Of a DNA stretch of 64,000 nt, positions 1-39,997 are shown piece by piece; positions within the stretch are counted from its first letter, which is position 1, and every line of letters starts with the position of its first letter. The position numbers and the translations under genes were made by a program. Source of the stretch: Candidatus Micrarchaeota archaeon (lineage in GTDB: Archaea; Micrarchaeota; Micrarchaeia; Micrarchaeales; CABMGC01); contig JAJZOD010000003.1 in the NCBI GenBank assembly GCA_021852055.1, forward strand, positions 82,846-146,845, given 5' to 3'. Below the pieces are notes generated by a model, which saw only the letters and a list, made by a program, of their open reading frames with translations, had not been told where the DNA came from and searched no databases.

Positions 1-1
1 A

Positions 2-7853: not shown

Positions 7854-7878
7854 TAAAACTTCTTAAAAAGAAGTTTAT

Positions 7879-9187: not shown

Positions 9188-9208
9188 AATATCATTAACT
9201 ACACTTTA

Positions 9209-9224
9209 TTACATATTTATGTAA
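9209..9224. promoter_or_regulatory. Perfect 16-bp palindrome TTACATATTTATGTAA 22-37 nt upstream of the abiEii start. Candidate autoregulatory operator overlapping the promoter
   Basis: The inverted repeat is read directly from the sequence. AbiEi proteins are known to autoregulate through promoter inverted repeats. Confidence 0.35.
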
Positions 9225-9281
9225 TAATATACATTTATATAACTGTATGTTAAAACAAACCGTTGTAGCTTTATCCGAAAG

Positions 9282-9712
9282 TCATAGACAACTTAAGAAT
9301 ATTATACCCAGTAGGACTTTTTTGATATAATGTTCGCCAATAAGTTTCGTCTTTCCGTATAGCGTTGGTGGGTCTTGATTTACACCGAGTGTAGAAATAT
9401 ATAGTACCTTAGAATTAATCATGTTTGCAGCCGTAACCACGTTTTTGGTTCCTTCAGAATTAATTGCGAGGGCACTTTTAGGATATTCTTCACATACTTT
9501 CCTACTTGGAATTGCAGCAGCATGTATAGTTAATTCCGGCCTTATGGTTAAGAAAGCTTGAACAACCGCTTCCTTATTAGTAATGTCCAGTTCTATTAAT
9601 TCATTGAATAATTTGTTTTTCTGAAATGTGCCAATTAATTCATAGTGCTTGCTTAGGTTCGTGAATATGCTTGCGCCTACATACCCGTTGCTCCTGTAAC
9701 TAAGATCTTCAT
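9282..9712 (-). pseudogene. Frameshifted and 3'-truncated NAD-dependent sugar reductase/epimerase (RmlD / dTDP-4-dehydrorhamnose reductase-like)
   Basis: The minus strand reads MKILVTGATGM* and then, after a -1 shift, GYVGASIFTNLSKHYELIGTFQ...IHAAAIPSRKVCEEYP...STLGVNQDPPTLYGKTKLIGEHYIKK. This contains a Rossmann GxxGxxG and a YxxxK. It ends after ~140 aa, against ~280 aa expected. Confidence 0.7.
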
Positions 9713-15270: not shown

Positions 15271-16332
15271 ATGGATATTGATGAGCGGATAGAGATAATA
15301 CGCTCCGAACCTACCGAGGAGATAGTTACTGACCAGGATCTGAGAACAGTGCTTGAAACAAAAGCGCATCCTAAACATTACATTGGCTTTGAGATAAGCG
15401 GCATGCTGCACATAGGCCATGTGCTTGTGGTCGGTAAGAAGATAAACGACCTTGAAAAGGCAGGTGTGCAGACCCAGATACTCATAGCAGACTGGCACAC
15501 TGTGGCGAACCAGAAGCTCGGCGGAGACTGGGAGCGCATTAAAAAAGCTGCCGAGTTTTACAAGAGAGTGTTCAGTTTTGTGTGCCCGAACTCAAAGATT
15601 ATACTCGGCTCTGATCTTTACCACAACAACAACGAGTACTGGAAGGATGTCATGAAAATTTCAGCAAAGACAACCATGGCCCGGGCCACGCGCACTCTCA
15701 TAATTCAGGGCCGGAGCGAGAAGGACACGCTTCATGTGTCGCAGTACATTTATCCTATGATGCAGGTTGCCGACATAAAGGCGCTCGATGTAGACATATC
15801 GCATGCTGGAATGGATCAGCGCAAGGTCCATATGCTTGCGCGCGAGGTGTTCGGAGAGCTGCATGACAAGCGGCCGCTTGCGCTGTTGCATACGCATCTG
15901 CTGCAGTCGCTTCTCGAGCCTCAGAAACTGAACGAGAGCGCGACAAAAGAGGAGATAGCAACTGCAATGAAGATGAGCAAATCAAAGCCAGGCTCCGGAA
16001 TAAACATCCTTGCAGGAAAGGAAGAGATCAAGCGCATAATCTCCGGAGGCTGGTGTCCTGAGGGTGTCACAGAAGGCAATCCGATACTGGGCCTGTGCAG
16101 GTATGTAATATTCCCCCACCTCAAGACAATGAAGATAGAGCGCAGCAGCAAATACGGCGGCGACATCGAATTTTCATCCTACAGGGACCTAGAAGAGTAC
16201 TTCGCCGGGAAGAAGCTGCATCCTGCTGATCTTAAAAGTGCTGTCGCATCGTCCATGATTAAGATTATCTCCCCAATATCTGACAGGTTCTCCGGAGAAA
16301 AAGAGGAGCTGGGGCGCCTTTTTGCTGTCTGA
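15271..16332 (+). CDS. tyrS: Tyrosyl-tRNA synthetase (class I)
   Basis: HIGH motif (LHIGH), KMSKS motif, and GMDQRKVHMLARE matching archaeal TyrRS GMEQRKIHMLARE. Confidence 0.8.
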   Translation: MDIDERIEIIRSEPTEEIVTDQDLRTVLETKAHPKHYIGFEISGMLHIGHVLVVGKKINDLEKAGVQTQILIADWHTVANQKLGGDWERIKKAAEFYKRVFSFVCPNSKIILGSDLYHNNNEYWKDVMKISAKTTMARATRTLIIQGRSEKDTLHVSQYIYPMMQVADIKALDVDISHAGMDQRKVHMLAREVFGELHDKRPLALLHTHLLQSLLEPQKLNESATKEEIATAMKMSKSKPGSGINILAGKEEIKRIISGGWCPEGVTEGNPILGLCRYVIFPHLKTMKIERSSKYGGDIEFSSYRDLEEYFAGKKLHPADLKSAVASSMIKIISPISDRFSGEKEELGRLFAV

Positions 16333-16384
16333 TGCCTCGCATTTATTTTAGCAGTCATCTGCTTCTCGCAGTGCAAATTACATT

Positions 16385-16585
16385 AATGTGCAAGCCTGGC
16401 AGCATATCCAAAAGCCAAGTGCAGGCAGGAAAAGGCACGCCGGGATTGGGACTTTCACAACCTTTAGTTTTAATCAAACTTTCCCTAAAAGCCTGTTTTG
16501 AACCCAAAAGGCCCGAAGGCCACCAGATCTCGAGTTTCGCCGCGCACACTGGCGCGATACCTGGTTCTGCCATCCCGGCTCAAGA
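16385..16585 (-). ncRNA. Candidate structured non-coding RNA of unknown class. Strand is tentative
   Basis: The gap between tyrS and the next gene is 311 nt with no credible ORF. Minus-strand structures are a GGCC-UUCG-GGCC hairpin (16510-16521), a CGCGC/GCGCG hairpin (16541-16556), a 7-bp helix ACCAGGU/AUCUGGU (16559-16565 with 16522-16528) and a long-range 8-bp helix GCCGGGAU/AUCCCGGC (16572-16579 with 16439-16446). Confidence 0.3.
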
Positions 16586-16643
16586 ATAATTGGCAAACAA
16601 ACCTTATTAATCTTGTCTTGGCGTATCTTTAGACTGTGCGGAT

Positions 16644-18092
16644 ATGAAGAAAAACGTAAGCAGGACAAATAGGACAAATGCCTTAGATGCTATAATAATC
16701 ATCATTCTGCTGATACTTCCTATAATGACTTTCTATGCCATACTTAGCATACAAGGGCCCTCATGGGATATTACTGCAAGATACCTGAATGGGAAGACGC
16801 TGCTTAATTTTATAGCCGGCGGAGCACACAAAGGAAATGCATTTGCTGGCGAGTACTCAAACAATCTTGCTTATTATTTCGAGCCTTACCGTGAACCGCT
16901 GAGCACGCCTATATTTGCGGTTATTGATGCAGTCTCTTCGGATTCTATCCTTGTTTATATAATCCTGATTTTTGTGGCTTATGCTGCAGTTGTGTGGAGG
17001 CTCGGAAAGGAGCTCAATATAGACACAGTAACCATCCTTGCAGCCATGACTGGACCATACGCTGTATTTTTCTTTTTTGTGCCGAACGGTGGCGAGGGGC
17101 TCGCAGTCATATTCGTGATTCTTGGTATCATATACCTCCTCAAAAAGAATCCAGTATCCGGCCTGTTCTTCGGCATCGCAGTGCTCGGAAAGTATCCTGC
17201 ACTAATACTTCTGCCTATACTTATTTTGCTGTGGAATAAGAAGAAGTTTGCCATAGCAGCCATCCTTGCTGCTGCTCCTATCGTGGCATGGGGTGTTATA
17301 GACTGGGGGCTCTATGGCGTGCCATTCTACAGTTATCTTGCATCAATATCCTATGCAAATGTTGCCTCTGCGCCATCTTATATAAGCTGGTCAGCAGTCA
17401 TCGGTGTTATTGCCTACCCTGTTGTGTTCGCATGCATTGGCATTGCCGCAATTTTTGCCTGCAGAAAGCGCATAAGCCTGTTCTTCAATTATAAAAGCTA
17501 TATAAATTACAAAGCAAAGGTATTTGCCGTATTAGTTGTGCTTTCGCTGCTGGGTTATGCTGCAATACTTCCGCATAATAATGCATTCACGCAGGCGAGG
17601 TATGGTTTCCTGCTGGCAGCAGCGCTCATGGCTTCCTCTGCAGTTATAATGGGGCGGGCCGTCCTCACAGTTTACAAGGTCAAATACGCTGCAGCAGCAT
17701 TTGCCATTGCAGTACTTTTGGGTTATCTCGTGTATTCGTCATTTATTCTCAATACAGCCCAGCTTAAATATTATAATCCAGGAAACAAAGCAAGCATATA
17801 TGCTTATTCTGAAAACGTACTCAGCAGTTTCGGCTTCAATAATTGCAGGGTAGTCTCAAATGCATGGATACCAATGCTGTATTCGGGTTACGATGCATAC
17901 TCCCCATACATATTTTATGGTGATATGGAGCAAGAGCACTACCCTGTTGTAGTATTCAACTACACTGGAGTGTCAATGGGCAGCACCAGGTACCTGCCGC
18001 TTCTAAAAAACGACACTAAAGCGTATTCCGGAGCCAACTTTACGATTTATCTACCAAAAGAGGCATCATGCTACAACTACACCGAACAATAA
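16644..18092 (+). CDS. Polytopic membrane protein, possible GT-C-type glycosyltransferase
   Basis: More than 10 predicted TM helices followed by a C-terminal soluble tail. It lies adjacent to a processive GT2. Assignment rests on architecture only. Confidence 0.4.
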   Translation: MKKNVSRTNRTNALDAIIIIILLILPIMTFYAILSIQGPSWDITARYLNGKTLLNFIAGGAHKGNAFAGEYSNNLAYYFEPYREPLSTPIFAVIDAVSSDSILVYIILIFVAYAAVVWRLGKELNIDTVTILAAMTGPYAVFFFFVPNGGEGLAVIFVILGIIYLLKKNPVSGLFFGIAVLGKYPALILLPILILLWNKKKFAIAAILAAAPIVAWGVIDWGLYGVPFYSYLASISYANVASAPSYISWSAVIGVIAYPVVFACIGIAAIFACRKRISLFFNYKSYINYKAKVFAVLVVLSLLGYAAILPHNNAFTQARYGFLLAAALMASSAVIMGRAVLTVYKVKYAAAAFAIAVLLGYLVYSSFILNTAQLKYYNPGNKASIYAYSENVLSSFGFNNCRVVSNAWIPMLYSGYDAYSPYIFYGDMEQEHYPVVVFNYTGVSMGSTRYLPLLKNDTKAYSGANFTIYLPKEASCYNYTEQ

Positions 18093-18188
18093 AAACAGCC
18101 AAATTTTACGGCTGCATAACACACAGCTGCACAGGATTTACGCTGCAGCATCCGCATTCCTTCTGCAGGCAATGCCAATATATTTATA

Positions 18189-19823
18189 TTGTTGGATAAT
18201 AAGATTTATCTGAAGCCGATACTGGCTAAAATTAAGCCTACTGATACCATGAAGAACATAAACGCTGACTACATAACACGCCTGTTTTCAGTTGTGCTAT
18301 TCGCATTCCTTACAATATTCGGGGCATTTTTCTTTGTATATCTTGTTATATACGCGCACAGCCTTTACAGCTACCTGCTCGCATTCTCATATCTTATTTT
18401 AATGCTGATATCCGGCTTCTTCAACATATTCACTGCATATGCATATTACCGCTCTTACTTCTATTACAAGTATCTTGACGGTATAAAGAGAAAAATTTCA
18501 TATTCTGCAGATAAAAAAAGCGTGCAAAACAAACCAAGCGTTGCAATAGTAATGTCAACTTTCAATGAAGACACCTCAGTAGTTAAAAGAAACCTCCAAC
18601 GTCTTCTTAAATTAAATTACCCTAAGGAAAAGCTGGCCTTTTATCTGCTTGATGATTCTACCGAGCCTACAATAATAACAGAGATGCGCAGTTTCTGCGG
18701 GAAGTTAGGCATAAAATACATACACCGGCAAAAAAGGCGCGCATACAAGGCCGGCGCGCTGAATAATATGCTCAAGTACTCAAAAGAAGACCTGATAGCC
18801 TACTTCGATTATGATGAGTATCTTGTAAACTTGAACTTTGTGCAGGATCTCGTGCCATATTTTGCAGACAAAAAGCTTACCTACATACAGACGGAGAAAA
18901 GCTACGCAAAGGGCAACTTCTTCTCAGACACAGTCGCACTTATAGACGGCTTCTTTTTCAAGTTCGTCCAGCCGGCAAGGGCTCTTGATAATACGGCAAT
19001 ATTTGCAGGTTCGTGCGGTATTATACGCAGGAAGCATCTGGTCGCAATGAAAGGATTTCCCGAATACATAACAGAAGACTCCTTCTTCAGTTTTGAGACT
19101 GATATGAACGGCTACAAAAGCCTTTATCTACCAAAGGTATACGCATTGGGCAAGCCAATAACAACATTTACTGAACTGGTCAGGCAGCAGTGGAGGTATA
19201 ATTACGGCGGAACCCAGTTTATAAGTTACTTTGCCGAAAGGCTGCGCCACAGAAACAAAGAGCGAAAGGTCTCAAGGCTTTCGATAGTGGATTACGCAAT
19301 GCACGGCTTCGGCTTAAACTATATATCGGTCATAGCAATAATATTTACTATCTTCTCCATACTGGTAACATTTTCACAGCTTCCTATAGTGAGTGTCAGC
19401 ATAAGCCAGCTGTTTCAGCCAAGCCTCATAAACCTTGATTTGGAGATATTCGGCATGGGTGTACTGTTTGCGTCTGTGTTAATGCCGATGATGCTCACAA
19501 AGATATACTTCGGTTCGTTCAAAAAAGGCATAATGTTCTTCTTCCTAACGTTTGCCCTGGTATTCGTACGGGCCAAGGCAGCCGCTGCAGCCGTATTCAA
19601 GACAAGCAGGAAGATAGTATGGGATAAAGATTCAATTAACGGAAACTACGGAAAGTTTGTATATGCATTTAGAAACTCATTGGCTGAATCGTCTTTCTCC
19701 CTCATATTAATGCTTCTGGGCGCTATGGCCATGGTAATAGGCAACCTGTTCGGCGGCTTCTGGCTTCTGTGGTATGCTGCCCTATACCTGATGACACCGT
19801 TAATGTTCTATAAATACGGCTGA
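18189..19823 (+). CDS. Membrane-embedded processive family-2 glycosyltransferase (cellulose/chitin-synthase-like)
   Basis: VAIVMSTFNE, DDST, an FDYDEY acidic motif, the QxxRW signature (RQQWRY) and flanking TM helices. The 18189 start is TTG and the first ATG is at 18249. Confidence 0.75.
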   Translation: MLDNKIYLKPILAKIKPTDTMKNINADYITRLFSVVLFAFLTIFGAFFFVYLVIYAHSLYSYLLAFSYLILMLISGFFNIFTAYAYYRSYFYYKYLDGIKRKISYSADKKSVQNKPSVAIVMSTFNEDTSVVKRNLQRLLKLNYPKEKLAFYLLDDSTEPTIITEMRSFCGKLGIKYIHRQKRRAYKAGALNNMLKYSKEDLIAYFDYDEYLVNLNFVQDLVPYFADKKLTYIQTEKSYAKGNFFSDTVALIDGFFFKFVQPARALDNTAIFAGSCGIIRRKHLVAMKGFPEYITEDSFFSFETDMNGYKSLYLPKVYALGKPITTFTELVRQQWRYNYGGTQFISYFAERLRHRNKERKVSRLSIVDYAMHGFGLNYISVIAIIFTIFSILVTFSQLPIVSVSISQLFQPSLINLDLEIFGMGVLFASVLMPMMLTKIYFGSFKKGIMFFFLTFALVFVRAKAAAAAVFKTSRKIVWDKDSINGNYGKFVYAFRNSLAESSFSLILMLLGAMAMVIGNLFGGFWLLWYAALYLMTPLMFYKYG

Positions 19824-19832
19824 GGCTGTGTT

Positions 19833-20147
19833 ATGCTATACATCAAACTGTACGAAACAGAAAAAGGAAGCATAGTAGCCCTGTGCGATGAAGGTCTTCT
19901 GGGGAAGAAGTACACAGACAAGCGCACCGGTGCAGAGCTTGATCTTAATAAGTACTCGGACTTTTATAAAGGCGACCTTGTCAATGCAGAGGAGGCAAAG
20001 CGAATAGTCTCACAAGAGTACATCTATTCTGCAAATGTGGTCGGCAATGAATCCGTAAGCCTTATGGTCGATGTTGGCCTTGCAGCAAGTGATGAGATAA
20101 AAATTATCGCCAAAGTCCCCTCTCTCCATATATATCGCCTGCTGTAA
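19833..20147 (+). CDS. DUF424-family protein
   Basis: MLYIKLYETEKGSIVALCDEGLLGKKY... matches the DUF424 pattern. The last 9 codons lie within the 37-bp repeat. Confidence 0.55.
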   Translation: MLYIKLYETEKGSIVALCDEGLLGKKYTDKRTGAELDLNKYSDFYKGDLVNAEEAKRIVSQEYIYSANVVGNESVSLMVDVGLAASDEIKIIAKVPSLHIYRLL

Positions 20148-20152
20148 TTATG
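20116..20152 (+). repeat. Left copy of a 37-bp imperfect direct repeat (exact 23-bp core atatatcgcctgctgtaattatg at 20130-20152)
   Basis: Aligns with 23706-23742 at a constant offset of 3590 nt with 3 mismatches. It covers the DUF424 C-terminal codons PSLHIYRLL and the stop codon. Confidence 0.9.
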
Positions 20153-20366
20153 CCTTAGCCTTTCACTGCGCTGGGTCAAAGTAGCTTTGACATAATAATT
20201 TAGTAAGAGTTTAAGATTGCTACGGGCAAATTTTGTCATTCGATGACAATCATCAGGAAACTGCAAAACGCACGAAAATTCTGCCGTCGAAGCCGTAAAA
20301 TTTTTGAACTGTTACGCGCTCACGGAAACCTTATTATCCTTTGCTATCTGAGAATAAAACAGTAAG

Positions 20367-21107
20367 GTGTTAGATATGGCAGACATAGGAAGAGTGAAGA
20401 CCGGAATACCGGGATTCGATGAACTTGTGGAAGGCGGAATACCAAACGGCAGTTTCGTAGTCGTGACTGGCGGCCCCGGAACAGGCAAGACGATACTTGG
20501 CCTGCAGTTCCTCGAGAATGGGATAAACCAGTACAAAGAGAAGGGAATTTTCATCAGTGTAGAGCAGTCGAAACCAGAGATACTCCGCCAGGCAGGGCAG
20601 TTCGGCTGGAACCTTGGGAAGATGGAGAAGGAAGGGAATCTTCGCATAATAATCCTAAGCACGCGCGACCTCTTCGATGCCTCAGAGGTCGAGAAGGTGA
20701 TATCCGCTATAAGGGAGGACCACTACTCAAGGGTCGTTATCGACAGCATCACCTCGTTCGTGATGACACCGCCGTCTCCCTCGACTGTAACACATAGCAT
20801 ATCCAACAAACAGGATGTCGGTGCTTTCGGCGAGCTGAGACGCGCCAGTGCAGCGATGCTCATAGACAGGATAAAGACAAGCGGAGTTACTGCATTGGGC
20901 CTTGCACAAAAGGTGGACGGCATGCCAGGATTGACAGCCGACACAATAAGCGAGTTCAAGGGCGACGGGCTGGTAATGTTATCCATTGTGGAAACAGGAG
21001 GAGATGTAAGTCGCATCCTGAAGGTGCTTAAGATGAGGAGTTCGAACAATGATCTTAATACCAAAAAATTCTCCATCAAGAAGGGCACCGGGATTGTTAT
21101 AGAATAG
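20367..21107 (+). CDS. Single-domain KaiC/RadA-like (RecA-superfamily) ATPase
   Basis: IPGFDELVEGGIPNGSFVVVTGGPGTGKT (Walker A) and VVIDSI (Walker B). Size is 246 aa. Confidence 0.85.
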   Translation: MLDMADIGRVKTGIPGFDELVEGGIPNGSFVVVTGGPGTGKTILGLQFLENGINQYKEKGIFISVEQSKPEILRQAGQFGWNLGKMEKEGNLRIIILSTRDLFDASEVEKVISAIREDHYSRVVIDSITSFVMTPPSPSTVTHSISNKQDVGAFGELRRASAAMLIDRIKTSGVTALGLAQKVDGMPGLTADTISEFKGDGLVMLSIVETGGDVSRILKVLKMRSSNNDLNTKKFSIKKGTGIVIE

Positions 21108-21119
21108 AGTGTTGTCTAG

Positions 21120-22238
21120 ATGCCTGCACTGGATAGGGTTAAAGATTTCTTTATAAAAAACATCTTGATACCTAAAGTATTCCGAATAGATATCCCAGGG
21201 TATGTGGCAGGCAAGTTTTATACGATAGAAGGGCAGTCGGTATTTGTAAGAAATGTTTTTGTTCCAGAAACGTTCTTCATTAAATTGGAGCATCTGGTGA
21301 TAAAAGAGATGGGTGCGGAAGGTGTGATTCAGTTATACCGCATCGGGAAGCAGTTTGGATACAGATTCTCACAGACGAACAGATTTCCACTGGACAATCC
21401 TGCCAAGGCTATTGTACTGGTTGCAAGCTTCTTTGAAACCTTATACGCAGATTCAATAAAATCCAAAGTAGATATACCTAACAAGATACTAGTACTGGAT
21501 ACTAAAGGATTAGTCATAACCCGAGAAAATGGCGGAGGTTACATTCTCACAATCGGCGGCTGTGCAGGAATCTGGGGTTATTTAGTGGGGGATTACTCTG
21601 TCGAGTGTTCTTCACGAAAGATAGGGAATGAAGAATACGAGTTGGTAAGTGCCGCTCCCAGCGTATTGGAGAAGGAACATCTTGATATTGTACGCTGTAT
21701 TGAGAAGCCGCAGAAGTTAAATGTAACAAGTTACAATTTATATAATCAGCCCCCTCTGGAGATTTCTGAAACGGCCCCCACCATAGATAAACTCATGACC
21801 GAGTCAGGCGTAATCTCTTATAAAGGAGGGAGGCTGCATTTATCAGTGTCAAATGTTAGATTTATTCCGATAGAGATATCCTTGCTGTCAGAAGTAAGCA
21901 TCCTTCCGGCAAAATTTGTTTCTAAGGCGGCTTATGATTCCTTCTACGAAATTGGTAAAAATACAACCAAACAGAAGGATCCATACTTGTTCATAGCTGA
22001 ATTGTTAACTGCATTTGGATTTGGAATAGTGGATGTCATAGTAAAAAAGAATAGCAGAGTCTTCAACATGAGAGGCTATCCCTATCTCACGGAAGCTTAT
22101 AAAAACACGGATTTCTCTTTCATAACAAGCATTTTGCGCGGATTTTTGGATGGAAATACACTGGAGACCCATTCTGCAGTTGGTGTATCCTCAAAAATAT
22201 CTGGTAACATGTTTATACTTACAATAGAGATTAAATGA
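21120..22238 (+). CDS. Uncharacterised 372-aa protein with two V4R-like (4-vinyl-reductase / hydrocarbon-binding) halves
   Basis: The N-terminal half reads ...VPETFFIKLEHLVIKEMGAEGVIQLYRIGKQFGYRF...GGCAGIWGYLVG. The C-terminal half reads ...FIPIEISLL...AAYDSFYEIGKN...ELLTAFGFG. This is pattern resemblance only. It starts 12 nt after kaiC-like and overlaps the next gene by ATGA. Confidence 0.4.
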   Translation: MPALDRVKDFFIKNILIPKVFRIDIPGYVAGKFYTIEGQSVFVRNVFVPETFFIKLEHLVIKEMGAEGVIQLYRIGKQFGYRFSQTNRFPLDNPAKAIVLVASFFETLYADSIKSKVDIPNKILVLDTKGLVITRENGGGYILTIGGCAGIWGYLVGDYSVECSSRKIGNEEYELVSAAPSVLEKEHLDIVRCIEKPQKLNVTSYNLYNQPPLEISETAPTIDKLMTESGVISYKGGRLHLSVSNVRFIPIEISLLSEVSILPAKFVSKAAYDSFYEIGKNTTKQKDPYLFIAELLTAFGFGIVDVIVKKNSRVFNMRGYPYLTEAYKNTDFSFITSILRGFLDGNTLETHSAVGVSSKISGNMFILTIEIK

Positions 22239-23107
22239 ATAACAGACTAAAAGGCGTAAGAGAGGCATTCAATCTACCAATATTGTTAGTTGTGGTTCCA
22301 ACAGTTGCATTAGGCTTTCTCGCAGGAGGATCTACAAACATTCTCCTTCTGCTCGACTCTTTAGCTTTGATTGTGCTGATGAGCATCAGTGCGAATGTAA
22401 TAAACAACTATGCGGATTGGGATATAGACATAATGAATAGGAAACGCAATATTATGCACGAAACATGGCGTCGGAACGAGCTTTTGGCGTTTTACCTTAT
22501 TCTGTTAGTTGTACTCTTTGTGATTGCCTTCCTGTCAAATGCAAGCATGTATCTTTGGATAACGGTAGTCTTACTGGTTATTCTTGGTATATGCTATTCA
22601 ATCACCATCAGACTGAAGAACATTGTCCCGCTGAATTACATTGCAATAGCCGGTGCGTATGGTTTCCTGTCTTTTTACATGGGCTTTTTCGCATCTTCTT
22701 TCTCTTCATCCAAGTTCTGGTTGTGGATACCGGTGCCACTGTTCCTATTTGCAATGGATTTGGGGTATTCAATAACTAAGGATTACAGTGATGTGATTGG
22801 GGATAAGGCATACGGCAAGAAAACGCTACCTCTGGTAATAGGAAAATCCGAATCCGTGAAGGTGCAAACGGTAATTATTACAATTGCGTATGTGTTTTTG
22901 TTCCTGTTAATACTATTTGGCAAGTTGAGTTATGCATTTTCAGTTCTATTTCTGTCTTATCTATTTGCACTTTATATACTCTGGCAAACCAGATCTACAG
23001 ATAACAATAAGCTCCTTCGAAATGCACATCTTGAGGCTCAGCTTAATGGATTGTTAGCAAGATTCATAATGATTACGATACTTTTACTTGCTCTTGCGGA
23101 AATCTAG
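22235..23107 (+). CDS. UbiA-family aromatic/isoprenoid prenyltransferase (about 8-9 TM helices)
   Basis: First Asp-rich motif NNYADWDID. Second motif KDYSDVIGDKAYGKKTLP. Confidence 0.8.
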   Translation: MNNRLKGVREAFNLPILLVVVPTVALGFLAGGSTNILLLLDSLALIVLMSISANVINNYADWDIDIMNRKRNIMHETWRRNELLAFYLILLVVLFVIAFLSNASMYLWITVVLLVILGICYSITIRLKNIVPLNYIAIAGAYGFLSFYMGFFASSFSSSKFWLWIPVPLFLFAMDLGYSITKDYSDVIGDKAYGKKTLPLVIGKSESVKVQTVIITIAYVFLFLLILFGKLSYAFSVLFLSYLFALYILWQTRSTDNNKLLRNAHLEAQLNGLLARFIMITILLLALAEI

Positions 23108-23249
23108 CTCTGCACGGTTTCACTACTTGTAGTTATTTGGGGGTCAGGTAAATCTCCTCCGGCAAGACTCTCTGCCTCGAAAGATGCAAACCCCACTATA
23201 AGCGGTTGGGAGATTTCTCCGCACTAAATTAATTGGTCTGTTGATAGTC

Positions 23250-23700
23250 CTAAGTTATTTCAACTGAAGGGCATCGTAGCAGTGCTGTTTATCTGATTCC
23301 TATTTTCAATCACGATGGCTTTGTTTTCATATTGCCATAATGCTGTATAGGTTTCCTACGCTTTCTTTCACTGTCGTTCCAATACCTTCGTTTAGTACCA
23401 CAAACACAAGTTGTGTGTTTACCCTCTTCGCCTTATCCACTCCCTTCTCCAACTCTTCTCTCATCGCATTCGTCTGTCATTCGTAAATGGTCAGACTGCC
23501 AGTATCCTATGCTATCCTCCTCCTTGCTTTTATCGCGCCAACATGAACCAGTTCTTATCCAAATCGACAAACGCGAAATTACCTTTATCCTGCACCATGA
23601 GAATCGCCTTGCGCATAGGTCTTTGTGCTCCTCGCCTACTGCGAGAACTCCCATCTTGCGATCATGCGGTCGGGATCTATCACGTTAAGTCTCTTCACCG
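23250..23700 (-). pseudogene. Frame-disrupted gene remnant(s) of unknown family at the right end of the insertion
   Basis: Minus-strand fragments in three frames are separated by stops: MRKAILMVQDKGNFAFVDLDKNWFMLAR*, ...NAMREELEKGVDKAKRVNTQLVFVVLNEGIGTTVKESVGNLYSIMAI* and ENKAIVIENRNQINSTATMPFS*. Confidence 0.3.
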
Positions 23701-23705
23701 TCAAT

Positions 23706-23742
23706 TTCCCTCCCTCCACATATATCGCCTGCTGTAATTATG
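23706..23742 (+). repeat. Right copy of the 37-bp imperfect direct repeat
   Basis: See 20116-20152. It lies about 50 nt from the convergent NAC gene stop. Confidence 0.9.
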
Positions 23743-23793
23743 TCTTCTGCCCAGGCTATACGCTACAATGGGTCAAAAAATATCGGCAAGGCA

Positions 23794-24138
23794 TCATGAA
23801 AGCTTTAGTATAGCATCGGCTATGTTCCCACGAGCTTCCTCGAGTGCCTTTCTGGATTTTTCTTCATCTGCGCCTGTTTTCTCCATAACTATCTTTACAT
23901 CGTCCTCGCTTATTTCTACTGCAACCTTGTCTACGTGGCTTACAGAACCGCCTGTTATACTGAACGTTGTTGTGCCCTGCACTTCTATAAGCGTTACCGA
24001 AGGGCCCTCTATAACTATATCGCCGTCAGCACTGCTTATGGTTACCTTGTCTGCGGGTATCTCCGTGCTCTTCATGCCCATGCTGTCCATCATCCTCTTC
24101 AGCGCCCTAGGGTCCATATTAGGCATCATAAAAATCAC
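23794..24138 (-). CDS. nac: Nascent polypeptide-associated complex protein (archaeal NAC, NAC + UBA domains)
   Basis: NMDPRALKRMMDSMGMK...VIEGPSVTLIEVQG...EDDVKIVMEKTGADEEKSRKALEEARGNIADAI. Confidence 0.85.
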   Translation of the reverse strand: MIFMMPNMDPRALKRMMDSMGMKSTEIPADKVTISSADGDIVIEGPSVTLIEVQGTTTFSITGGSVSHVDKVAVEISEDDVKIVMEKTGADEEKSRKALEEARGNIADAILKLS

Positions 24139-24185
24139 TACATTAATTCCTATTTATTGTGCATCTACAATTATAAATAAGTTGT

Positions 24186-24491
24186 TTGCCTGTTATATAC
24201 ATGCGGGAAAACATCGGCAAGGCGAGCTTCAAGGTGCCTAAGGGAAAGCTGATTACTGCAAAGGTTGTTTACGGAAGCGAAATAAAGAGGGTTGAACTTA
24301 CAGGCGATTTTTTTATACATCCAGAAGAAGGTCTGTCTGTGATAGAGTCTTCAATTGAAGGAATGCCGTCCAATGCCCCTGAGGAAGATGTAGCTGCAGA
24401 AGTACAGTCTGCAATGGACGCAAACATGGTTCAGGCTATAGGGATAGATGCTTCTTCAGTTGCAAAGGTTGTAAAAAAGGCTATGGCATGA
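24186..24491 (+). CDS. lplB: Lipoate-protein ligase C-terminal-domain subunit (LplB-type, stand-alone)
   Basis: A 101-aa protein overlapping the lplA start by 4 nt. The pattern KVPKGKLITAKV...I..V.LTGDFFIHPEE is typical of the LplA C-terminal domain. Confidence 0.65.
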   Translation: MPVIYMRENIGKASFKVPKGKLITAKVVYGSEIKRVELTGDFFIHPEEGLSVIESSIEGMPSNAPEEDVAAEVQSAMDANMVQAIGIDASSVAKVVKKAMA

Positions 24492-25231
24492 AATGGCGCG
24501 TAATAAGCCTAGAAGAGCACGATGCTTTTTCCAACATGGCTATAGACGAGACTATTATGGCGCGGATTGCAAATAAGGAGGCCCACCCGACAATCCGGTT
24601 CTACACCTGGGAGCCCGGTGCTGTTTCAATAGGCAGATTTCAGAGCATGGCCGATGAAGTAAATCTCGAAAGGTGCAGGTCCCTCGGCATAGATTATGTG
24701 AGGCGCATAACAGGCGGAGGAGCTGTGTATCATTCCCATGGCGGCGAGATAACCTACAGCCTGATAGCGCCAGAGAAGCTTTTCAGCAAAGGCATACGGG
24801 AAAGCTACATGGAGATATGCTCTTATGTAATAAAAGGGCTCGAGGTTCTCGGAATCCATGCGGATTTCGCTCCGATAAACGATATATTAGTCAATGGCAG
24901 GAAGATATCTGGCAGTGCGCAAACAAGACGCCAGGGCGTACTGCTGCAGCACGGCACAATCCTTTACAAGCTAGATATACACGAAATGTTTTCCCTTCTT
25001 AACGTGAGCAGCGAGAAGATCTCCGACAAAGCTATAAAAAGCGCCGAGGACAGGGTCACATGCGTAAGCGATATTGCCGATGTCAGCCTTGAAGGGCTCT
25101 ACAAAGCCCTTTTATCAGGCTTTACCTCCGGCATAGACTATGAAATATCTAACCTTAGTAAGCAGGAGATTGATGATGCATCAGACCTCTCTGCATCGTA
25201 TAAAAGCGCGCAATGGAACATGATGCGATAG
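24488..25231 (+). CDS. lplA: Lipoate-protein ligase A catalytic subunit
   Basis: RRITGGGAVYH and GRKISGSAQ (catalytic Lys), within a BPL/LPL catalytic domain. Confidence 0.85.
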   Translation: MKWRVISLEEHDAFSNMAIDETIMARIANKEAHPTIRFYTWEPGAVSIGRFQSMADEVNLERCRSLGIDYVRRITGGGAVYHSHGGEITYSLIAPEKLFSKGIRESYMEICSYVIKGLEVLGIHADFAPINDILVNGRKISGSAQTRRQGVLLQHGTILYKLDIHEMFSLLNVSSEKISDKAIKSAEDRVTCVSDIADVSLEGLYKALLSGFTSGIDYEISNLSKQEIDDASDLSASYKSAQWNMMR

Positions 25232-25296
25232 GCTGCCTGCGCGGTGTTGAATTTCGATTCTATATAACTGCACGTTTCAGATAAACATACGCATAG

Positions 25297-26307
25297 CTAA
25301 GCTTTTTTGATGTCGCTTTCAACCATCAGCTTCACAAGCTCCTCAAATGTGGTTTTAGGCTTCCATCCCAGCAGCCGTTTTGCCTTGCTGTAATCAGCGA
25401 GCATATTGTCGGCTTCAAGAGGCCTGAAGAACTTGCTGCTCACGCTTACTACCTCCCTGCCGTTGTAAAATCCCTTTTCGTTCATGTCATTGCCTTTCCA
25501 TTCTATGTTCATGCCGGCAACTTCAAAAGCGCCTTCAACAAAGTCCCTTACTGTATGCAGCACGCCTGTTCCAAGTACAAAATCATCTGGCTCCTTCTGC
25601 TGCATCATCAGCCACATGCCTTCAACATAATCCTTTGCATATCCCCAGTCTTTTCTTGCATTCATGTTGCCAAGTTCGAGTACCTCCCTGCTGCCATTAT
25701 GCATCCTTGCAGCTGCAAGGCTTATCTTTCTTGTGACGAATTCCGGCCCGCGCACCTCGCTCTCATGGTTGAAAAGTATTCCATTAGCTCCAAAGATTCC
25801 GTAAGCCTCGCGGTAATTCTTAGTAAGCCAGTAACCTGCAAGCTTGCTTATGGCGTAAGGGCTCCTTGGGTGAAATGGCGTGCTCTCATCCTGCGGGACC
25901 TTCTCTGCAGTGCCATAAAGTTCGCTTGTCCCAGCAAAATAAAACCTGCTTTTAGGAGAAACCTCCTTTACAGCATTTACTATGTTCAGCGTACCTATTA
26001 TGTTGGTTTCAAGCGTAGCCTGCGGATTATGGAAGCTGTAGCCTACGAAGCTCTGCGCTGCGAGGTGGTATATCTCATCCGGTTCAGTGGCCTTGATGAC
26101 GTTGTTTATGAACTGTGCATCCGTCACATCACCGTGCTCCAGCTTTATCCTCTGGACAGTCTCGCGCGGCAGCATTTCAAGAGTTCCGAGCCGCATGTCC
26201 CTGTTCCTTCTGACTATGCCTGTAACGTCATAGCCCTTATCAAGCAGAAACTGCGCCATGAAGTATCCGTCCTGGCCTGTTATCCCTGTAACTAAAGCTT
26301 TTTTCAT
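25297..26307 (-). CDS. gmd: GDP-mannose 4,6-dehydratase
   Basis: MKKALVTGITGQDGYFMAQFLLDKGYDVTGIVRR...SELYG...YAISK...NHESE.RG. Confidence 0.9.
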   Translation of the reverse strand: MKKALVTGITGQDGYFMAQFLLDKGYDVTGIVRRNRDMRLGTLEMLPRETVQRIKLEHGDVTDAQFINNVIKATEPDEIYHLAAQSFVGYSFHNPQATLETNIIGTLNIVNAVKEVSPKSRFYFAGTSELYGTAEKVPQDESTPFHPRSPYAISKLAGYWLTKNYREAYGIFGANGILFNHESEVRGPEFVTRKISLAAARMHNGSREVLELGNMNARKDWGYAKDYVEGMWLMMQQKEPDDFVLGTGVLHTVRDFVEGAFEVAGMNIEWKGNDMNEKGFYNGREVVSVSSKFFRPLEADNMLADYSKAKRLLGWKPKTTFEELVKLMVESDIKKA

Positions 26308-26497
26308 GATATCCCTTAAATTATTGTATATAATTCCTAATATATAAGTTTTAGGATATGTATTCTATTAACATCCATAATTATTATAATTTGCGTGGAT
26401 GCGTGATAAGGCGTGCTACGGGCGCTGCCCTTGGGATAAGAGCGTAATTACCTATTTTTGTATGTGTCGCCTCATTTTAGGTTCAGCGGCAATACAT

Positions 26498-27616
26498 CTA
26501 TCGAAGAAGTTTTTTGTAGAATCTTCCAACATCCTGAATATAAAATGCCTCAAGGTTCTCCTTGTTTCTTATATACCTGCCTTTATCCCTGCTTCTTATT
26601 ATCTCAAGCGCTTTCTTTGCCATATCCTTTTCAGGCACAACTACGCACATGCTCTTCGCCTCATCGGATATCGGCGAGCCTTCCGGAATGAGAACCGGTG
26701 TGCCGACTGCAAGACTCTCAAGCGTTATTATGCTTAGCCCTTCTCTCTCAGACATATGCAACAGCAGCGAGGATCCTGCAAGTTTGTCGTAAAGCCTTGC
26801 CTTGTCTTTGTAAAACCCAGCAACACTAACATTCCTCTCCAGTGAAAGGCCTCTTATGTCGCGTTCTATGCTTTTCTTCTCAACGCCATCGCCTATTATC
26901 AGGCCTTTTACGCTGCTGTCCATTTTGATTATATCAGACATTATCCTGAGCCATTTGTCAATCCTCTTCTCCTTGATGAATCTGCCGGAGAAAATTACCA
27001 CTTTTTCACGTGCAGTGCCCCCTGCATGTTTTGCCTCAAGCTCTTTTCTGTCTAATATCGGTGCAAACACCAATATGCTACCTGCAGGTATGCCTCTTTC
27101 TTTCAAGGTATCCGCTATCCTTCCAAAATCTGCTATGTACCTGGCGGAATTTGATTTTATAAGAATATCCGAGTACCATCCTGCAATGCGCCCAAGTACC
27201 GGCCCGAGATAATCAACCCAATACCTTCTATCCCATACCTCGTCAAATCTTACCACCAGCTTGCATCTTCTGGCAAGCCTGTAGGTTCGTATGCCCAGCA
27301 GGTGCAGCACAGGAAACTCGTCTGTTATTATTGCATCGAACTTATACCTGAAAATGTTCATCGCATACAACGAAAACACAACCGCTTCACGTACCGAGCG
27401 CCTGCCGTGCCTGTATACATTTGTTTCACTTGCATCTCCATACGCGTGATATCTTACCCCGTTGTGCACGAACTCGCTCTGCATTCCAGGCCATTTAAGC
27501 GTGAAGAAGTGCACTTCATGCTCCTTTGCGAGCTCCTCTGCCTCGATGGCCATTATGTGTTCTATGCCTCCTTTATGCCATGGATACGGCACATCGTAGA
27601 CGAATGCTATTTTCAT
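26498..27616 (-). CDS. Glycosyltransferase, GT4 (group 1) family
   Basis: GT-B architecture with the C-terminal EGLSIITLESLAVGTPVL E-x7-E-type motif. Confidence 0.75.
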   Translation of the reverse strand: MKIAFVYDVPYPWHKGGIEHIMAIEAEELAKEHEVHFFTLKWPGMQSEFVHNGVRYHAYGDASETNVYRHGRRSVREAVVFSLYAMNIFRYKFDAIITDEFPVLHLLGIRTYRLARRCKLVVRFDEVWDRRYWVDYLGPVLGRIAGWYSDILIKSNSARYIADFGRIADTLKERGIPAGSILVFAPILDRKELEAKHAGGTAREKVVIFSGRFIKEKRIDKWLRIMSDIIKMDSSVKGLIIGDGVEKKSIERDIRGLSLERNVSVAGFYKDKARLYDKLAGSSLLLHMSEREGLSIITLESLAVGTPVLIPEGSPISDEAKSMCVVVPEKDMAKKALEIIRSRDKGRYIRNKENLEAFYIQDVGRFYKKLLR

Positions 27617-27690
27617 TAATTATCCCCTTCAAGCCCTAACCATCAATTCCCTGTTTTTTGACTTTCCATGTTCCACTTTTAGAAATAACC

Positions 27691-27724
27691 ACATACTTTG
27701 ATCTATAACATACTTTGATCTATA
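27691..27724. repeat. Perfect tandem duplication, 2 x 17 bp (acatactttgatctata), upstream of the GT4 gene
   Basis: Read directly: 27691-27707 equals 27708-27724. Confidence 0.9.
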
Positions 27725-27739
27725 TGCATATTTAACTAG

Positions 27740-28273
27740 TCACTTATGGCCTATCCTCTCTAAGACGAAATCCACGCGCTTCGATACCGGTAGCTTGGGT
27801 ATGGATACAACATTATACCCTGATTCTATATACGCCTCTTTCATAAACTCGGAAAGCCTGGAAGCTACGCTGAAAGGCTCCTTCCTCTCGGAATCAGTTG
27901 CATAAATCTCCTTCCATGGTTCTGTAAAGAATACTTCCTTACTGAAGCGGTACTTGCTTATGGCTTCAGATATGCCCTCAAGCACAGGCACTCCGGAGTG
28001 TTTCAGGTAGCCAATATTATCCACGAAGCTCCTGTCAAGGAACCATGTCCCGTCCTTTGCTGCAAGGTACTGTTTGACCTGCCTGTCCAAAAGCAGTTTG
28101 TTGAATGCCAAAATATCGCGCCATGGCAGAGCAGGGCTGTCAATCTCTATAAGCTCCTTTATGAGCAAACGGCTCTCTTCAGGCAGGCACCTGAATCCGC
28201 GCCTCTCAAGTTCTGTTATTATTGAAGTTTTGCCGCCTCCTGGCGCTCCTGTTATTACAAAAACATTTTTCAT
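27740..28273 (-). CDS. P-loop ATPase / nucleotide-kinase-like protein (AAA_28-type)
   Basis: MKNVFVITGAPGGGKTS is a Walker A motif at the N-terminus. Size is 177 aa. Confidence 0.6.
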   Translation of the reverse strand: MKNVFVITGAPGGGKTSIITELERRGFRCLPEESRLLIKELIEIDSPALPWRDILAFNKLLLDRQVKQYLAAKDGTWFLDRSFVDNIGYLKHSGVPVLEGISEAISKYRFSKEVFFTEPWKEIYATDSERKEPFSVASRLSEFMKEAYIESGYNVVSIPKLPVSKRVDFVLERIGHK

Positions 28274-28280
28274 CGCATCC

Positions 28281-29537
28281 TCATGTGCCTGTTTTCCAGC
28301 TTGACAGATACTCTATCTGCTCTTCTGTAAGCTTGTCTATAGAGATTCCCATAGCTTCAAGTTGCAGCCTAGAGATGTCATCATCAATGCTTTCCGGAAG
28401 GAGCACAACTTCTGCACCTAGTTTGCCCTTGTTTTTAACAAGGTATTCGCATGCAAGCGCCTGCCCTGCAAAGCTTGTTGCCATGACTTCGCTTGGATGC
28501 CCTTCTGCAGCTGCAAGGTTCACCAATCTGCCTTCCCCACACACATAGATCTTCCTGTCACCGAGTCCGTATTCATGGAAGTTTGGGCGTATCTGCCTTT
28601 TGCTGAAGTCTTTCAGCGATGCCATGTCTATTTCAACATCAAAATGTCCCGAATTTGCAAGTATTGCGCCGTCTTTCATCTTTTTCATATGCTCAAGGCG
28701 TATAACATTCTTGTCTCCTGTGACTGTCACGAATATGTCTCCCAGGCCTGCCGCGTCATCCATCTTCATCACCCTGAACCCGTCAAGTGCCGCCTGGAGC
28801 GCCTTGAAGTTGTCTACCTCTGTAACTATGACGTTCGCGCCCATGCCTTTGGCCCGCAGTGACACTCCCTTGCCGCAGCTCCCGTAACCTGCTACCACAA
28901 AGGTTTTGCCTGATATGAGGGTTGCGCTTGCGCGGATCAGGCCGTCGAGCGTTGACTGCCCTGTGCCATAATAATTATCAAGGAGATGTTTTGTCTTGTT
29001 GTCGTTTACTGCAATCACTGGATACTTCAGTGCATCTGCCTTCTTCATTGAATGAAGCCTTATTATCCCTGTGGTAGTTTCTTCGCATCCGCCTATTATC
29101 GAGCTTATCTGGCTAGGATACTTCTCATGAATCCTTGTTACTAGGTCGCAGCCGTCGTCTATTGTAATTGTTGGTTTTTCCGATATGACTTTATCCAAAT
29201 ATCTGTAATAATCCTCTACACTCTCCCCCCTGTAACCGTAGACCTTGACTCCTTCCTCGGCCAGGGCCGCAGCCACGTCATCCTGCGTTGAGAGCGGGTT
29301 GCAGCTTGCTATTGCCACATCCGCTCCTCCAGCGCGCAGAGCCTTTACGAGCACCGCAGTTTCCTTTGTAAGGTGGAGCGCCATGCCTACTGTCATGCCT
29401 TTGAACGGCCTCTCCTTCGAAAATCTATCCCTGATCTTGGTCACTATCTCCATGCGTTTTTCAGCGAGCTCTATGTTGAGCCTGCCCTGTTCTGCCAGCT
29501 TAAGGTCTTTTACTTCGTATGTGCTGCCTTTGTCCAT
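28281..29537 (-). CDS. ahcY: Adenosylhomocysteinase
   Basis: 418 aa, with VAGYGSCGKG NAD-binding loop, DDGCDL and HFDVEID motifs. Confidence 0.9.
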   Translation of the reverse strand: MDKGSTYEVKDLKLAEQGRLNIELAEKRMEIVTKIRDRFSKERPFKGMTVGMALHLTKETAVLVKALRAGGADVAIASCNPLSTQDDVAAALAEEGVKVYGYRGESVEDYYRYLDKVISEKPTITIDDGCDLVTRIHEKYPSQISSIIGGCEETTTGIIRLHSMKKADALKYPVIAVNDNKTKHLLDNYYGTGQSTLDGLIRASATLISGKTFVVAGYGSCGKGVSLRAKGMGANVIVTEVDNFKALQAALDGFRVMKMDDAAGLGDIFVTVTGDKNVIRLEHMKKMKDGAILANSGHFDVEIDMASLKDFSKRQIRPNFHEYGLGDRKIYVCGEGRLVNLAAAEGHPSEVMATSFAGQALACEYLVKNKGKLGAEVVLLPESIDDDISRLQLEAMGISIDKLTEEQIEYLSSWKTGT

Positions 29538-29589
29538 ATAATCACATAAATATATACATTTTATAAGGTATCAAATCAATGTCTGTCGA

Positions 29590-30312
29590 TTATGTTTTCC
29601 TAAGTTTTGCATAATACTCGGACGCTTTTAGCAACGAATCAAAGCTTCCAACATCAGACCAGAAGCCCTCTACCATGACAACTCTCAAAAGTCCATCATT
29701 CATATACTCTTTGTTCACGTCAGTGAGTTCTAGTTCACCTCTTGGGCTTTCCTTAAGCTGCCTTATGCGCTTAAAAACGTCGTTGGGGTAAATGTATAAT
29801 CCCGTAAGAACAAATTTTGATTTTGGATTCTCTGGCTTCTCTTCAATACTTATGACTTTATCATCCTTATCAAGCTCAACGACGCCAAACAACGATGGAT
29901 TATCGCTTTCTTTTACAAATATATACGCATACTTATCGGTGAAAGCTCCCCCTGGAATCTCTGCGGAGCTAAATACATTATCGGCAAGTATCACAACTAC
30001 TTTCTCTTTTCCAAAGAATTCTTCTGTCTGCAACAGTGCATGGGCAGTACCGCGGGGTTTGTTTTGCACCCTATACGTTAATGTAAGTTCCGGTCTCGCG
30101 TATACCTCGAGAAATCTTATAAAATCCTCAAGATGATCCTCACCTGTGACTATACAGACATTATCCACGCCGGATTTCTTGAGCGTATCCAACGGATATG
30201 TCACCATTGGTCTATCAAATACAGGAAGCAAACTCTTGTTAGTTACATATGTAAGCGGTCGTAGCCGTTTGCCCTCGCCTCCGGCAAGTATGGTACCCCT
30301 TCTGTTTGCCAA
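29590..30312 (-). CDS. Sugar-1-phosphate nucleotidylyltransferase (short form, RmlA/GlmU-N-like)
   Basis: ILAGGEGKRLRPLT signature. Confidence 0.8.
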   Translation of the reverse strand: MANRRGTILAGGEGKRLRPLTYVTNKSLLPVFDRPMVTYPLDTLKKSGVDNVCIVTGEDHLEDFIRFLEVYARPELTLTYRVQNKPRGTAHALLQTEEFFGKEKVVVILADNVFSSAEIPGGAFTDKYAYIFVKESDNPSLFGVVELDKDDKVISIEEKPENPKSKFVLTGLYIYPNDVFKRIRQLKESPRGELELTDVNKEYMNDGLLRVVMVEGFWSDVGSFDSLLKASEYYAKLRKT

Positions 30313-30392
30313 AAAACTACCTAATATATTATTACAGGCAAGATATTAAAGTGCTTTGCATGAATAAATAATCTGTCAAAATTTGTGATGTA

Positions 30393-31436
30393 ATGCAGAA
30401 ACTCTCTGTGCTCATAATGACTCGGAATAATACCAAGACAGCTATAAATCTAATTGAAGATCTGAAAGACATTGCAGACGAGTTTGTAATTATAGAAAGC
30501 AGTGAAGGAAAAGATAAAAATCTAATAAAGAAATATTCCTTAAAAAACAGAAAAGTCAGTATATACGATTCAGTAGCCCTTGGATATCAAGATCCATTGC
30601 GCATGTATGGTCTTAGCAAATGCGAAAACGAATGGGTTCTTCATCTGGATGTTGACGAGAGACTTTCATCTAGCCTAAAAACGGGACTTAAAAGTATGAT
30701 AAACACTCAAAAAGTGAGTGCATTCTCATTCAGAAGATACGAACACGTAGAAAACAATAACCATCGCAGGACTTCATTCTTCACTTGGCAGGTGCGTTTG
30801 TTTAAAAAGAGCAAGATAGTTTTCCATGGATTAATACACGAAGCCCCAATTATAAACGGCCATATCTATTATATAAAAGACAAAGAAAAATATGTCGAAC
30901 ATGTAGAAGAGTTCAAGGTATCCGGCCCGAGAGAGTATTCAATAATGCACAAGCTGGATAGATTATCCTATGCGGCATATAATGATGCCATGTTGGAATA
31001 CTTGGCAAAATTTACAAAAACTGACAAGAAGAAAATCAAAAAAACATTTGCAGGTAGAGTACTTATATCCCTAATTCTACTATATGAGCGGATAACCTTA
31101 AAGAAATATGACAAAGAGATAAGTAATTTTGACTATTTTTTTTATAATCTATTCAAGAGCGTAGGATACGCTATTATGATGAAAAGCCCTATGGCATTTA
31201 TAAGATCTTTCGAAAATGCAACATACGAGTCCCGGCGCATAAAAGAATGGAGGCGCGAGCCCGATGCCAAAGAACTATTTGAGTTATCTAAAATTATACG
31301 AAAAATCGGGATAATAAAGTTTCTAAATCTAGATAAGGAGGAAACTGTAAAAATAATATACAACAAATACAAAGGCAAAAAACAGGGGATATCCTTATTA
31401 CTTCATCTCCTTATTGAACAATATAAAAAACAATAA
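30393..31436 (+). CDS. Glycosyltransferase family 2 with a helical C-terminal extension
   Basis: LSVLIMTRNN... and an LDVDERL (DxD-like) motif. Confidence 0.65.
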   Translation: MQKLSVLIMTRNNTKTAINLIEDLKDIADEFVIIESSEGKDKNLIKKYSLKNRKVSIYDSVALGYQDPLRMYGLSKCENEWVLHLDVDERLSSSLKTGLKSMINTQKVSAFSFRRYEHVENNNHRRTSFFTWQVRLFKKSKIVFHGLIHEAPIINGHIYYIKDKEKYVEHVEEFKVSGPREYSIMHKLDRLSYAAYNDAMLEYLAKFTKTDKKKIKKTFAGRVLISLILLYERITLKKYDKEISNFDYFFYNLFKSVGYAIMMKSPMAFIRSFENATYESRRIKEWRREPDAKELFELSKIIRKIGIIKFLNLDKEETVKIIYNKYKGKKQGISLLLHLLIEQYKKQ

Positions 31437-31452
31437 AACAAACTTAGTAAAA

Positions 31453-32424: not shown

Positions 32425-32495
32425 TATATCGTTACTGATTCTTCGCTAACATTTAAATATTTGGTAAGTCATCTATAAGTAAGTACGGTATAATT

Positions 32496-33752: not shown

Positions 33753-33762
33753 TTGATACTTT

Positions 33763-34731: not shown

Positions 34732-34733
34732 AA

Positions 34734-39993: not shown

Positions 39994-39997
39994 GCGT

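Follow-up and report, generated by a model that had tools for sequence, protein, structure and literature searches.

How did a segment of 3.6 kb come to lie between two convergent genes of an archaeon, and why does each of its ends carry the same short 3' end of one of these genes? The segment stands between the gene for a DUF424 protein and a NAC gene in contig JAJZOD010000003.1 (assembly GCA_021852055.1), of which we analysed positions 82,846 to 146,845, a stretch of 64,000 nt referred to here as the window; all coordinates are counted from its first letter. The host is an acid-mine archaeon of the Micrarchaeota (DPANN). DPANN archaea have very small genomes, and gene acquisition is poorly documented in them. 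Our analysis confirmed that the segment is a genuine insertion bounded by repeats. As to its origin, we consider it rather probable that 3,590 bp were gained at the convergent DUF424/NAC junction by one reciprocal crossover between the 3' end of the DUF424 gene and a diverged copy of that end on an incoming circular DNA. The locus, with filled and empty alleles in one natural population, is a clean population-level case of recent gene gain in a DPANN archaeon.

Repeats, empty site and ancestral state

The segment is bounded by a direct repeat of 44 nt, a single family of two copies that lie at a constant offset of 3590 nt and are identical at 39 of 44 positions (89%). The copies share an exact 23-nt core, ATATATCGCCTGCTGTAATTATG, located at 23720-23742 in the right copy (the remaining coordinates are collected in Table 1). 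When up to three mismatches were allowed, the core was found at just these two sites in the window, with 0 sites expected from 100 shuffles. Both copies, translated in the plus-strand frame, end in ...PSLHIYRLL followed by a stop codon. The C-terminus VPSLHIYRLL is native to the DUF424 protein, and an alignment of the family shows this terminal motif to be conserved. The initial annotation of this DNA had described 37-bp repeats with 3 mismatches and a 23-bp core at the same offset, both encoding this C-terminus, and two perfect hairpins at the left end; each of these features was recovered, with the repeat now extended to 44 nt. Local alignment against shuffles detected no significant similarity outside the 44 nt (p=0.22 on the left, p=0.06 on the right), and a longer homology past the repeat by way of the common TGGGTCAAA was dropped as not significant.

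An exact-protein look-up of the DUF424 product gave 24 contigs; among the matches listed, nine were filled and one, L007 (GCA_023474585.1), was empty. L007 aligned with the window over 15301-20156 (99.5% identity) and 23708-26246 (98.8%), and its junction, ...CTCTCCAT-core-CCTT|CTGCCCAGG..., consisted of the complete left copy followed by the right flank. The stop codons of DUF424 and NAC are 56 nt apart in L007, which is also the gap that remains when 3590 nt are removed from the window and agrees with the distance of about 50 nt predicted initially. The base after the core is a C in the left copy and in L007, and a T in the right copy of every filled contig (at least 12). L007 is therefore neither an assembler jump nor a homologous deletion through the 23-nt core. 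The most parsimonious junction falls at 20156|20157, 9 nt downstream of the DUF424 stop codon. All five differences between the two copies are located in the right copy, to which no DUF424 body is attached. The initial proposal of a replacement gene end was not supported: DUF424 neither needs nor uses one, since it is the left copy that equals the empty site at 44 of 44 positions.

The species genomes of GTDB were then scanned with the DUF424 alignment, which yielded 80 loci, nearly all from Micrarchaeota; a scan of genome contigs with the single DUF424 protein gave no matches. NAC lies convergent to DUF424, 12-111 nt past it, in 34 Micrarchaeota species, among them the complete genome of Ca. 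Micrarchaeum sp. A_DKE, and a GT2 gene is usually found upstream. This GT2-DUF424-NAC order indicates that the empty state is ancestral and that the segment in the window is a gain; taken together with the empty site of L007, it bears out the earlier view of the segment as an insertion. Other, unrelated genes, 0.26-3.9 kb in extent, occupy the interval between DUF424 and NAC in 13 species (loci L038, L041, L043, L044, L049, L055, L057, L059, L064, L066, L067, L076 and L080), and the junction seems to be a recurrent place of gene gain in Micrarchaeota. Neither a duplicated DUF424 end nor an obvious integrase was seen at these 13 loci, and the idea that DUF424 is a recurrent target of attachment-site (att) type integration in other species was abandoned on these grounds. 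The intervening genes, which are without repeats, encode a His-phosphatase, a C39-like peptidase, a HAD protein, membrane proteins and an AsnC-type helix-turn-helix protein.

Table 1. Features of the insertion locus (positions in the window)
Feature	Position	Strand	Evidence or remarks
DUF424 gene (104 aa), target	19833-20147	+	Pfam PF04242, E=1e-12; protein identical in L007
Left repeat copy (attL)	20113-20156		Last 11 DUF424 codons, stop codon and 9 nt downstream; no mismatch to the empty site (attB) over 44 positions
Exact 23-nt core, left copy	20130-20152		
Element-specific left end	20157-20324 (168 nt)		Two perfect 7-bp hairpins
Intact operon of three genes, preceded by about 50 nt of its upstream sequence	20325-23107	+	Pfam, NCBIfam
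KaiC-domain ATPase	20376-21107	+	
Tandem V4R-fold protein X (predicted), 372 aa	21120-22238	+	No Pfam match
UbiA-family prenyltransferase	22235-23107	+	
Fossil 3' remnant of another UbiA gene, of the L011 type (...KGIVAVLFI-stop)	23249-23300, stop codon 23294-23296	+	Aligned to L011 (3' ends of UbiA and R, and spacer)
R pseudogene (3 frameshifts, 2 in-frame stops)	23327-23704	-	Six-frame translation; homologs P0001, P0020-P0025
Right repeat copy (attR)	23703-23746		Resembles the DUF424 3' end and is putatively carried by the element; 5 mismatches to the left copy
NAC gene	23794-24138	-	Pfam PF01849; convergent partner of DUF424 in the ancestral arrangement

Contents of the insert

The cargo is an intact operon encoding a KaiC-domain ATPase, a protein that we call X and a UbiA-family prenyltransferase. 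The AlphaFold2 (AF2) model of X, built from an 18-sequence alignment, had a predicted local distance difference test score (pLDDT) of 85.9, and its best matches in the PDB by Foldseek were the aromatic-sensor domains of MopR, PoxR and DmpR, the vinyl-4-reductase-family protein MJ1460 and TRAPP Bet3. X is therefore assigned a tandem V4R-type fold, and the model suggests that it may bind a small hydrophobic ligand. X-UbiA pairs are common on Micrarchaeota chromosomes, with KaiC present or absent, and this tandem V4R protein, which always has a UbiA prenyltransferase as its partner, is one of two uncharacterised families to which the locus draws attention.

Homology of the operon to its closest relatives begins exactly at 20325 and stops at the UbiA stop codon. 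Nucleotide identity over 20325-23106 was 86% to L028, in which an MFS transporter and a 1112-aa protein flank the operon; to L012/L013, where the context is different again, it was 74% over 20325-23074. KaiC is nearer to L012 (81% amino acid identity, against 71% for L028), and X and UbiA are nearer to L028 (92% and 91%) than to L012 (79% and 64%). These comparisons show that the operon itself is mosaic, and the KaiC-X-UbiA operon appears to circulate and recombine among Micrarchaeota chromosomes. The pieces of the insert differ in their nearest relatives, all of which are chromosomal. Two divergent KaiC-X clusters are present in GCA_023485825.1 (L028 and L029), with X at 92% and 34% amino acid identity to that of the window; this could be paralogy, xenology or a mixture of bins. 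The X homolog of L011 (2118-3268) is split into ORFs (open reading frames) of 102 and 283 aa, either by a frameshift or by an assembly error.

At the right end of the insert about 600 nt of sequence are frame-broken on the minus strand, as had been annotated. The initial annotation had advised searching these remnants for integrase or recombinase homology; they proved to be no decayed integrase but the pseudogene of a gene, R, that is a chromosomal neighbour of the operon in other lineages. R belongs to an uncharacterised family of about 120 aa, the second of the two families flagged by this locus. Its probable start codon in the window is a TTG at 23704-23702, preceded by the Shine-Dalgarno-like GGAGGGAGGG. 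R adjoins KaiC-X-UbiA clusters in L011 and in L024/L025 too, and thus accompanies three divergent versions of the operon (window, L011 and L024/25). The window R is 78% identical in nucleotides to that of L011 and 76% to those of L024-26, and the operons of those loci are only 33-40% identical in amino acids to that of the window. Between the intact UbiA gene and R lies the fossil end of a second UbiA gene, of the L011 type, surviving at about 23267-23296, which suggests an earlier swap of one operon version by another. The nearest relatives of the R module, together with this fossil end, indicate that the R module and the operon are of different origins.

We found no match for R in Pfam, PHROGs or NCBIfam, and R is absent from IMG/VR; its AF2 model (pLDDT 47.7) was unusable. 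In the R family the motifs KD-FDVG and YECQT-AI are invariant, and EEHK is kept in every member covering that stretch. The predicted order of secondary structure elements, alpha-beta-beta-beta-beta-alpha-beta, is reminiscent of PD-(D/E)xK nucleases. R might be imagined as a new small site-specific nuclease or recombinase that mobilises KaiC-V4R-UbiA cassettes in Micrarchaeota, with the att sequence abutting its start codon and the window copy a dead relic, a notion that we regard as very doubtful. Its presence beside three divergent operon versions, its much higher similarity among these loci than that of the operons, and its occurrence near a transposase fragment in L027 would fit this picture. 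No att-like repeats were found around the L024/L025 cluster. P0023, an R homolog that is longer (215 aa) because it is extended at the N-terminus, occurs in L027 (4890-7762), in a defence island shared with GmrSD, a fragment of a DDE transposase and a type I/IIG restriction-modification system.

Directly upstream of R, in another frame, an N-terminal fragment of about 74 aa resembling HAD hydrolases (DxN motif, Pfam E~0.1) was observed at three loci (L011, 663-887; L024, ~9890-10000; L026, ~356-466). At these loci the fragment could be what is left of a truncated target gene, a counterpart of the DUF424 end in the window. That R might be the C-terminal half of a HAD hydrolase was considered and rejected, given the E value of the fragment and the presence in L024 of an ATG and a Shine-Dalgarno sequence belonging to R itself.

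The left end of the insert has no homolog among the fetched loci. Its two hairpins (20175-20191, GTCAAAG-TAG-CTTTGAC; 20233-20249, TTGTCAT-TCG-ATGACAA) have 7-bp stems and 3-nt loops, and 0.07 such hairpins would be expected in 168 nt from the density across the window. There was no Rfam match and no terminator by scan in the left end, and its overall RNA fold was not significant (z=-0.76).

Origin of the insert

In the origin that we favour, the donor would be a foreign member of the Micrarchaeota of similar composition, and the incoming DNA, presumably circular, would bear about 33-44 nt that copy the 3' end of DUF424 with slight divergence. A single crossover of this circle at or next to the CTT at 20154-20156 and 23744-23746 would leave attL as pure chromosome and attR as pure element, the latter abutting the start of the dead gene R. 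The corresponding attP junction would read ...CCTCCCTCCAC-ATATATCGCCTGCTGTAATTATG-[T/C]CTT-AGCCTTTCACTG..., and the attB junction ...CTCTCCAT-core-CCTTCTGCCCAGG.... Since the segment is without a recombinase, the crossover would have been catalysed either by an integrase acting in trans or by host recombination on short homeology. We count for this origin that the repeat is unique in the window and of a length typical of archaeal att sites, that an empty site exists, that the empty state is ancestral, and that the operon is foreign and mosaic, with an R module and a fossil UbiA end of separate descent. A target duplication made at insertion should give almost identical copies, whereas the two copies differ at no fewer than 2 positions in 33 nt (5 in 44) despite a flank divergence between filled and empty alleles of 0.13% on the left and about 1% on the right. 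This argues that the look-alike was already present on the incoming DNA, and so predates the insertion as an attP would with respect to attB. Two of the differences (TCT/TCC and CAT/CAC) fall inside the P-S-L-H codons, at third positions where, read in frame with DUF424, they are silent, which suggests that the right copy may have descended from the DUF424 end of another host.

Several observations weigh against integration of a mobile element at this site. No integrase, transposase, Cas1 or replication gene was found by Pfam in any ORF or reconstructed remnant of the segment, in keeping with the initial statement that no integrase was recognisable, and the scan of 29 window ORFs, all those of the segment and those next to the only tRNA gene among them, likewise gave no integrase, transposase or replication gene. 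Neither the attP pattern nor the core had a match in viral and metagenome contig collections, but the negative is weak, the metagenome collection being without even the filled locus. All 24 contigs that contain the remnant ORF show it in an integrated context, with no circular form, and every copy occupies one single site, without an independent second integration. The insert has no single-nucleotide polymorphisms (SNPs) in at least 12 assemblies whose right flanks differ by 0.5-1.1%, and the SNP-free block (16966-23766) is not confined to the insert, as it includes 3.2 kb of the left flank. The population data are therefore no proof of mobility, and we withdrew the SNP desert as an argument for it. 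Finally, when the sequences that precede R were aligned for the window, L011, L024 and L026, the leftmost ~11 nt of the right repeat proved to contain R's own Shine-Dalgarno-like GGAGGG and start codon. As these nucleotides are natively the ribosome-binding site of R, part of the 44-nt similarity is due to chance or low complexity, and the repeat junction could be of microhomology-mediated origin. Two further results complete the search for mobility functions: Pfam revealed no mobilisation or transfer module in any ORF of the segment, and an SSV-type split integrase was rejected, as the remnants belong to R and no single ORF results from the minus-strand frames that run through the two repeats.

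In the right repeat, from about 23714 rightwards the resemblance to other R loci fades and the sequence becomes DUF424-like, with 31 of 33 positions identical through the stop codon and the following 9 nt; by this alignment, the R module and the DUF424 look-alike are joined inside a CCCTCC microhomology. As the main rival to the crossover, a linear chromosomal fragment from another Micrarchaeon may have been inserted illegitimately, its R-proximal end (...CCCTCC...) annealing to the polypyrimidine run of the DUF424 end (...CCCTCT...). Repair synthesis would then have copied the next ~27-33 nt of the target and so produced the duplication, with a few mismatches arising later and homologous recombination spreading the insertion among strains. 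Such an event fits the homology that links the right repeat, in its left arm, with the ribosome-binding region of R in L011 and L024, so that the repeat starts in the microhomology zone. It also fits a cargo of ordinary chromosomal DNA with its chromosomal neighbour R and no mobile-element genes, the lack of an inverted repeat connecting the two ends of the insert, for which we searched, and the mosaic haplotypes of the strains, which imply frequent homologous exchange. We nevertheless judge it unlikely, since at least two substitutions in about 33 nt (6%) would be required after the event while the flanks are 0.13-1% apart, both coding differences are synonymous in the DUF424 frame, and a templated duplication of about 30 nt is atypical.

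It is also conceivable that the filled state is the older one in this species and that L007 arose by a secondary precise deletion or excision between the repeats. Direct repeats promote deletion, L007 is the one empty contig among 24 with the DUF424 protein, and the filled contig L006 has left-flank SNPs in common with L007. The C after the core is kept in L007, however, so that a homologous crossover would have had to miss the 23-nt core and hit the 3-nt CTT, and the empty arrangement is ancestral phylum-wide; we hold this history to be quite improbable, and an excision in L007 would in any case have been preceded by an insertion. That either the insertion or the empty site is an artefact of assembly or binning can hardly be credited: although all sequences are metagenome assemblies, and L006, L010 and L023 break inside the left end, the filled structure is identical in at least 12 independent assemblies and a collapse through the 23-mer is incompatible with the base that follows the core in L007.

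Integration by a crossover at the DUF424 end can be set beside systems already described. The initial annotation had called a protein-gene 3' end an unusual target. This does not hold for Thaumarchaeota, where 14 of 68 integrated elements (about a fifth) occupy such ends (PMC6563490); archaeal att sites typically measure 29-69 bp (median 45; PMC6563490), and the smallest known integrated element is 2.6 kb. The segment resembles archaeal integrated elements, both cryptic integrated elements (CIE) and those with SSV-type or pNOB8-type integrases, in its imperfect direct repeats of att length (44 nt), in the overlap of one repeat with the 3'-distal end of a protein-coding gene, in the existence of a close relative with an empty site and in a size inside their range. 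Unlike them, it has no integrase, which is their defining conserved gene, no split integrase at its ends and no replication or winged helix-turn-helix genes, and its cargo is a metabolic operon of chromosomal type. Casposons and insertion sequence (IS)-type transposons at protein-gene 3' ends are likewise found by a conserved gene end with a direct repeat of target sequence, but the segment lacks their terminal inverted repeats, Cas1 and transposase, and its repeat of 44 nt with 5 mismatches is not a short exact duplication.

The cis-mobilisable elements (CIMEs) of streptococci, a concept from the literature (for example PMC5704250, PMC7563491), are att-flanked islands without recombination or transfer genes that are mobilised in trans by a related integrative and conjugative element. 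The segment is like them in being enclosed by att-like repeats, in having neither a recombinase nor a mobilisation module and in its adaptive or metabolic cargo; it differs in that its host is a DPANN archaeon, for which no conjugation is known, and that no cognate autonomous element with the same att is known. By analogy, the closest category would be a non-autonomous, CIME-like island flanked by att sites, or just an islet gained by horizontal transfer. No new principle is involved: there are precedents both for att-flanked islands that lack an integrase and for integration at the 3' ends of protein genes. The locus points to a possible route for shuffling operons, through trans-acting integrases or host recombination on homologies of about 30-40 nt.

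Composition, haplotypes and the surrounding window

The initial annotation had named a composition like that of the flanks, together with the lack of an empty site, as a refuting outcome. The compositional part went against an insertion, as the GC content of the insert (42.7% vs 43.5%) and its tetranucleotides match the flanks, with 32% of same-size windows lying further from the mean, and the idea that the insert is compositionally foreign was rejected; the empty site was found, and overrides this result. The strongest tetranucleotide outliers in the window deviate far more than the insert does. One, at 5500-9500, has a low GC content (~36%) around an AAA_14/DUF4143 ATPase gene (6310-7530), and the other, at 1-4738, has a high GC content (~50%) and covers a 1558-aa ORF.

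The boundaries between strain haplotypes hug the insert, lying within 24 nt of its right edge (23743-23767) and, in the filled contig L006, which breaks off after 228 nt of insert, within 67 nt of its left edge (20090-20157). This is expected if tracts of homologous exchange between filled and empty strains are stopped by so large a heterology, and we therefore did not count it as evidence of repeated integration. A 9-nt in-frame indel at 16662-16670, near the start of the gene for a 482-aa membrane protein, also separates strain haplotypes.

The source metagenome-assembled genomes carry the NCBI label 'Candidatus Marsarchaeota'. Relatives of DUF424, NAC and X, as well as synteny, are overwhelmingly those of Micrarchaeota, and the label is probably a misclassification. 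To the right of the insert, 25297-41299 holds a large cell-surface glycosylation cluster with GT1, GT2 and GT4 glycosyltransferases, epimerases, a DegT aminotransferase and a C-methyltransferase, in which SNPs between strains form a mosaic pattern of blocks.

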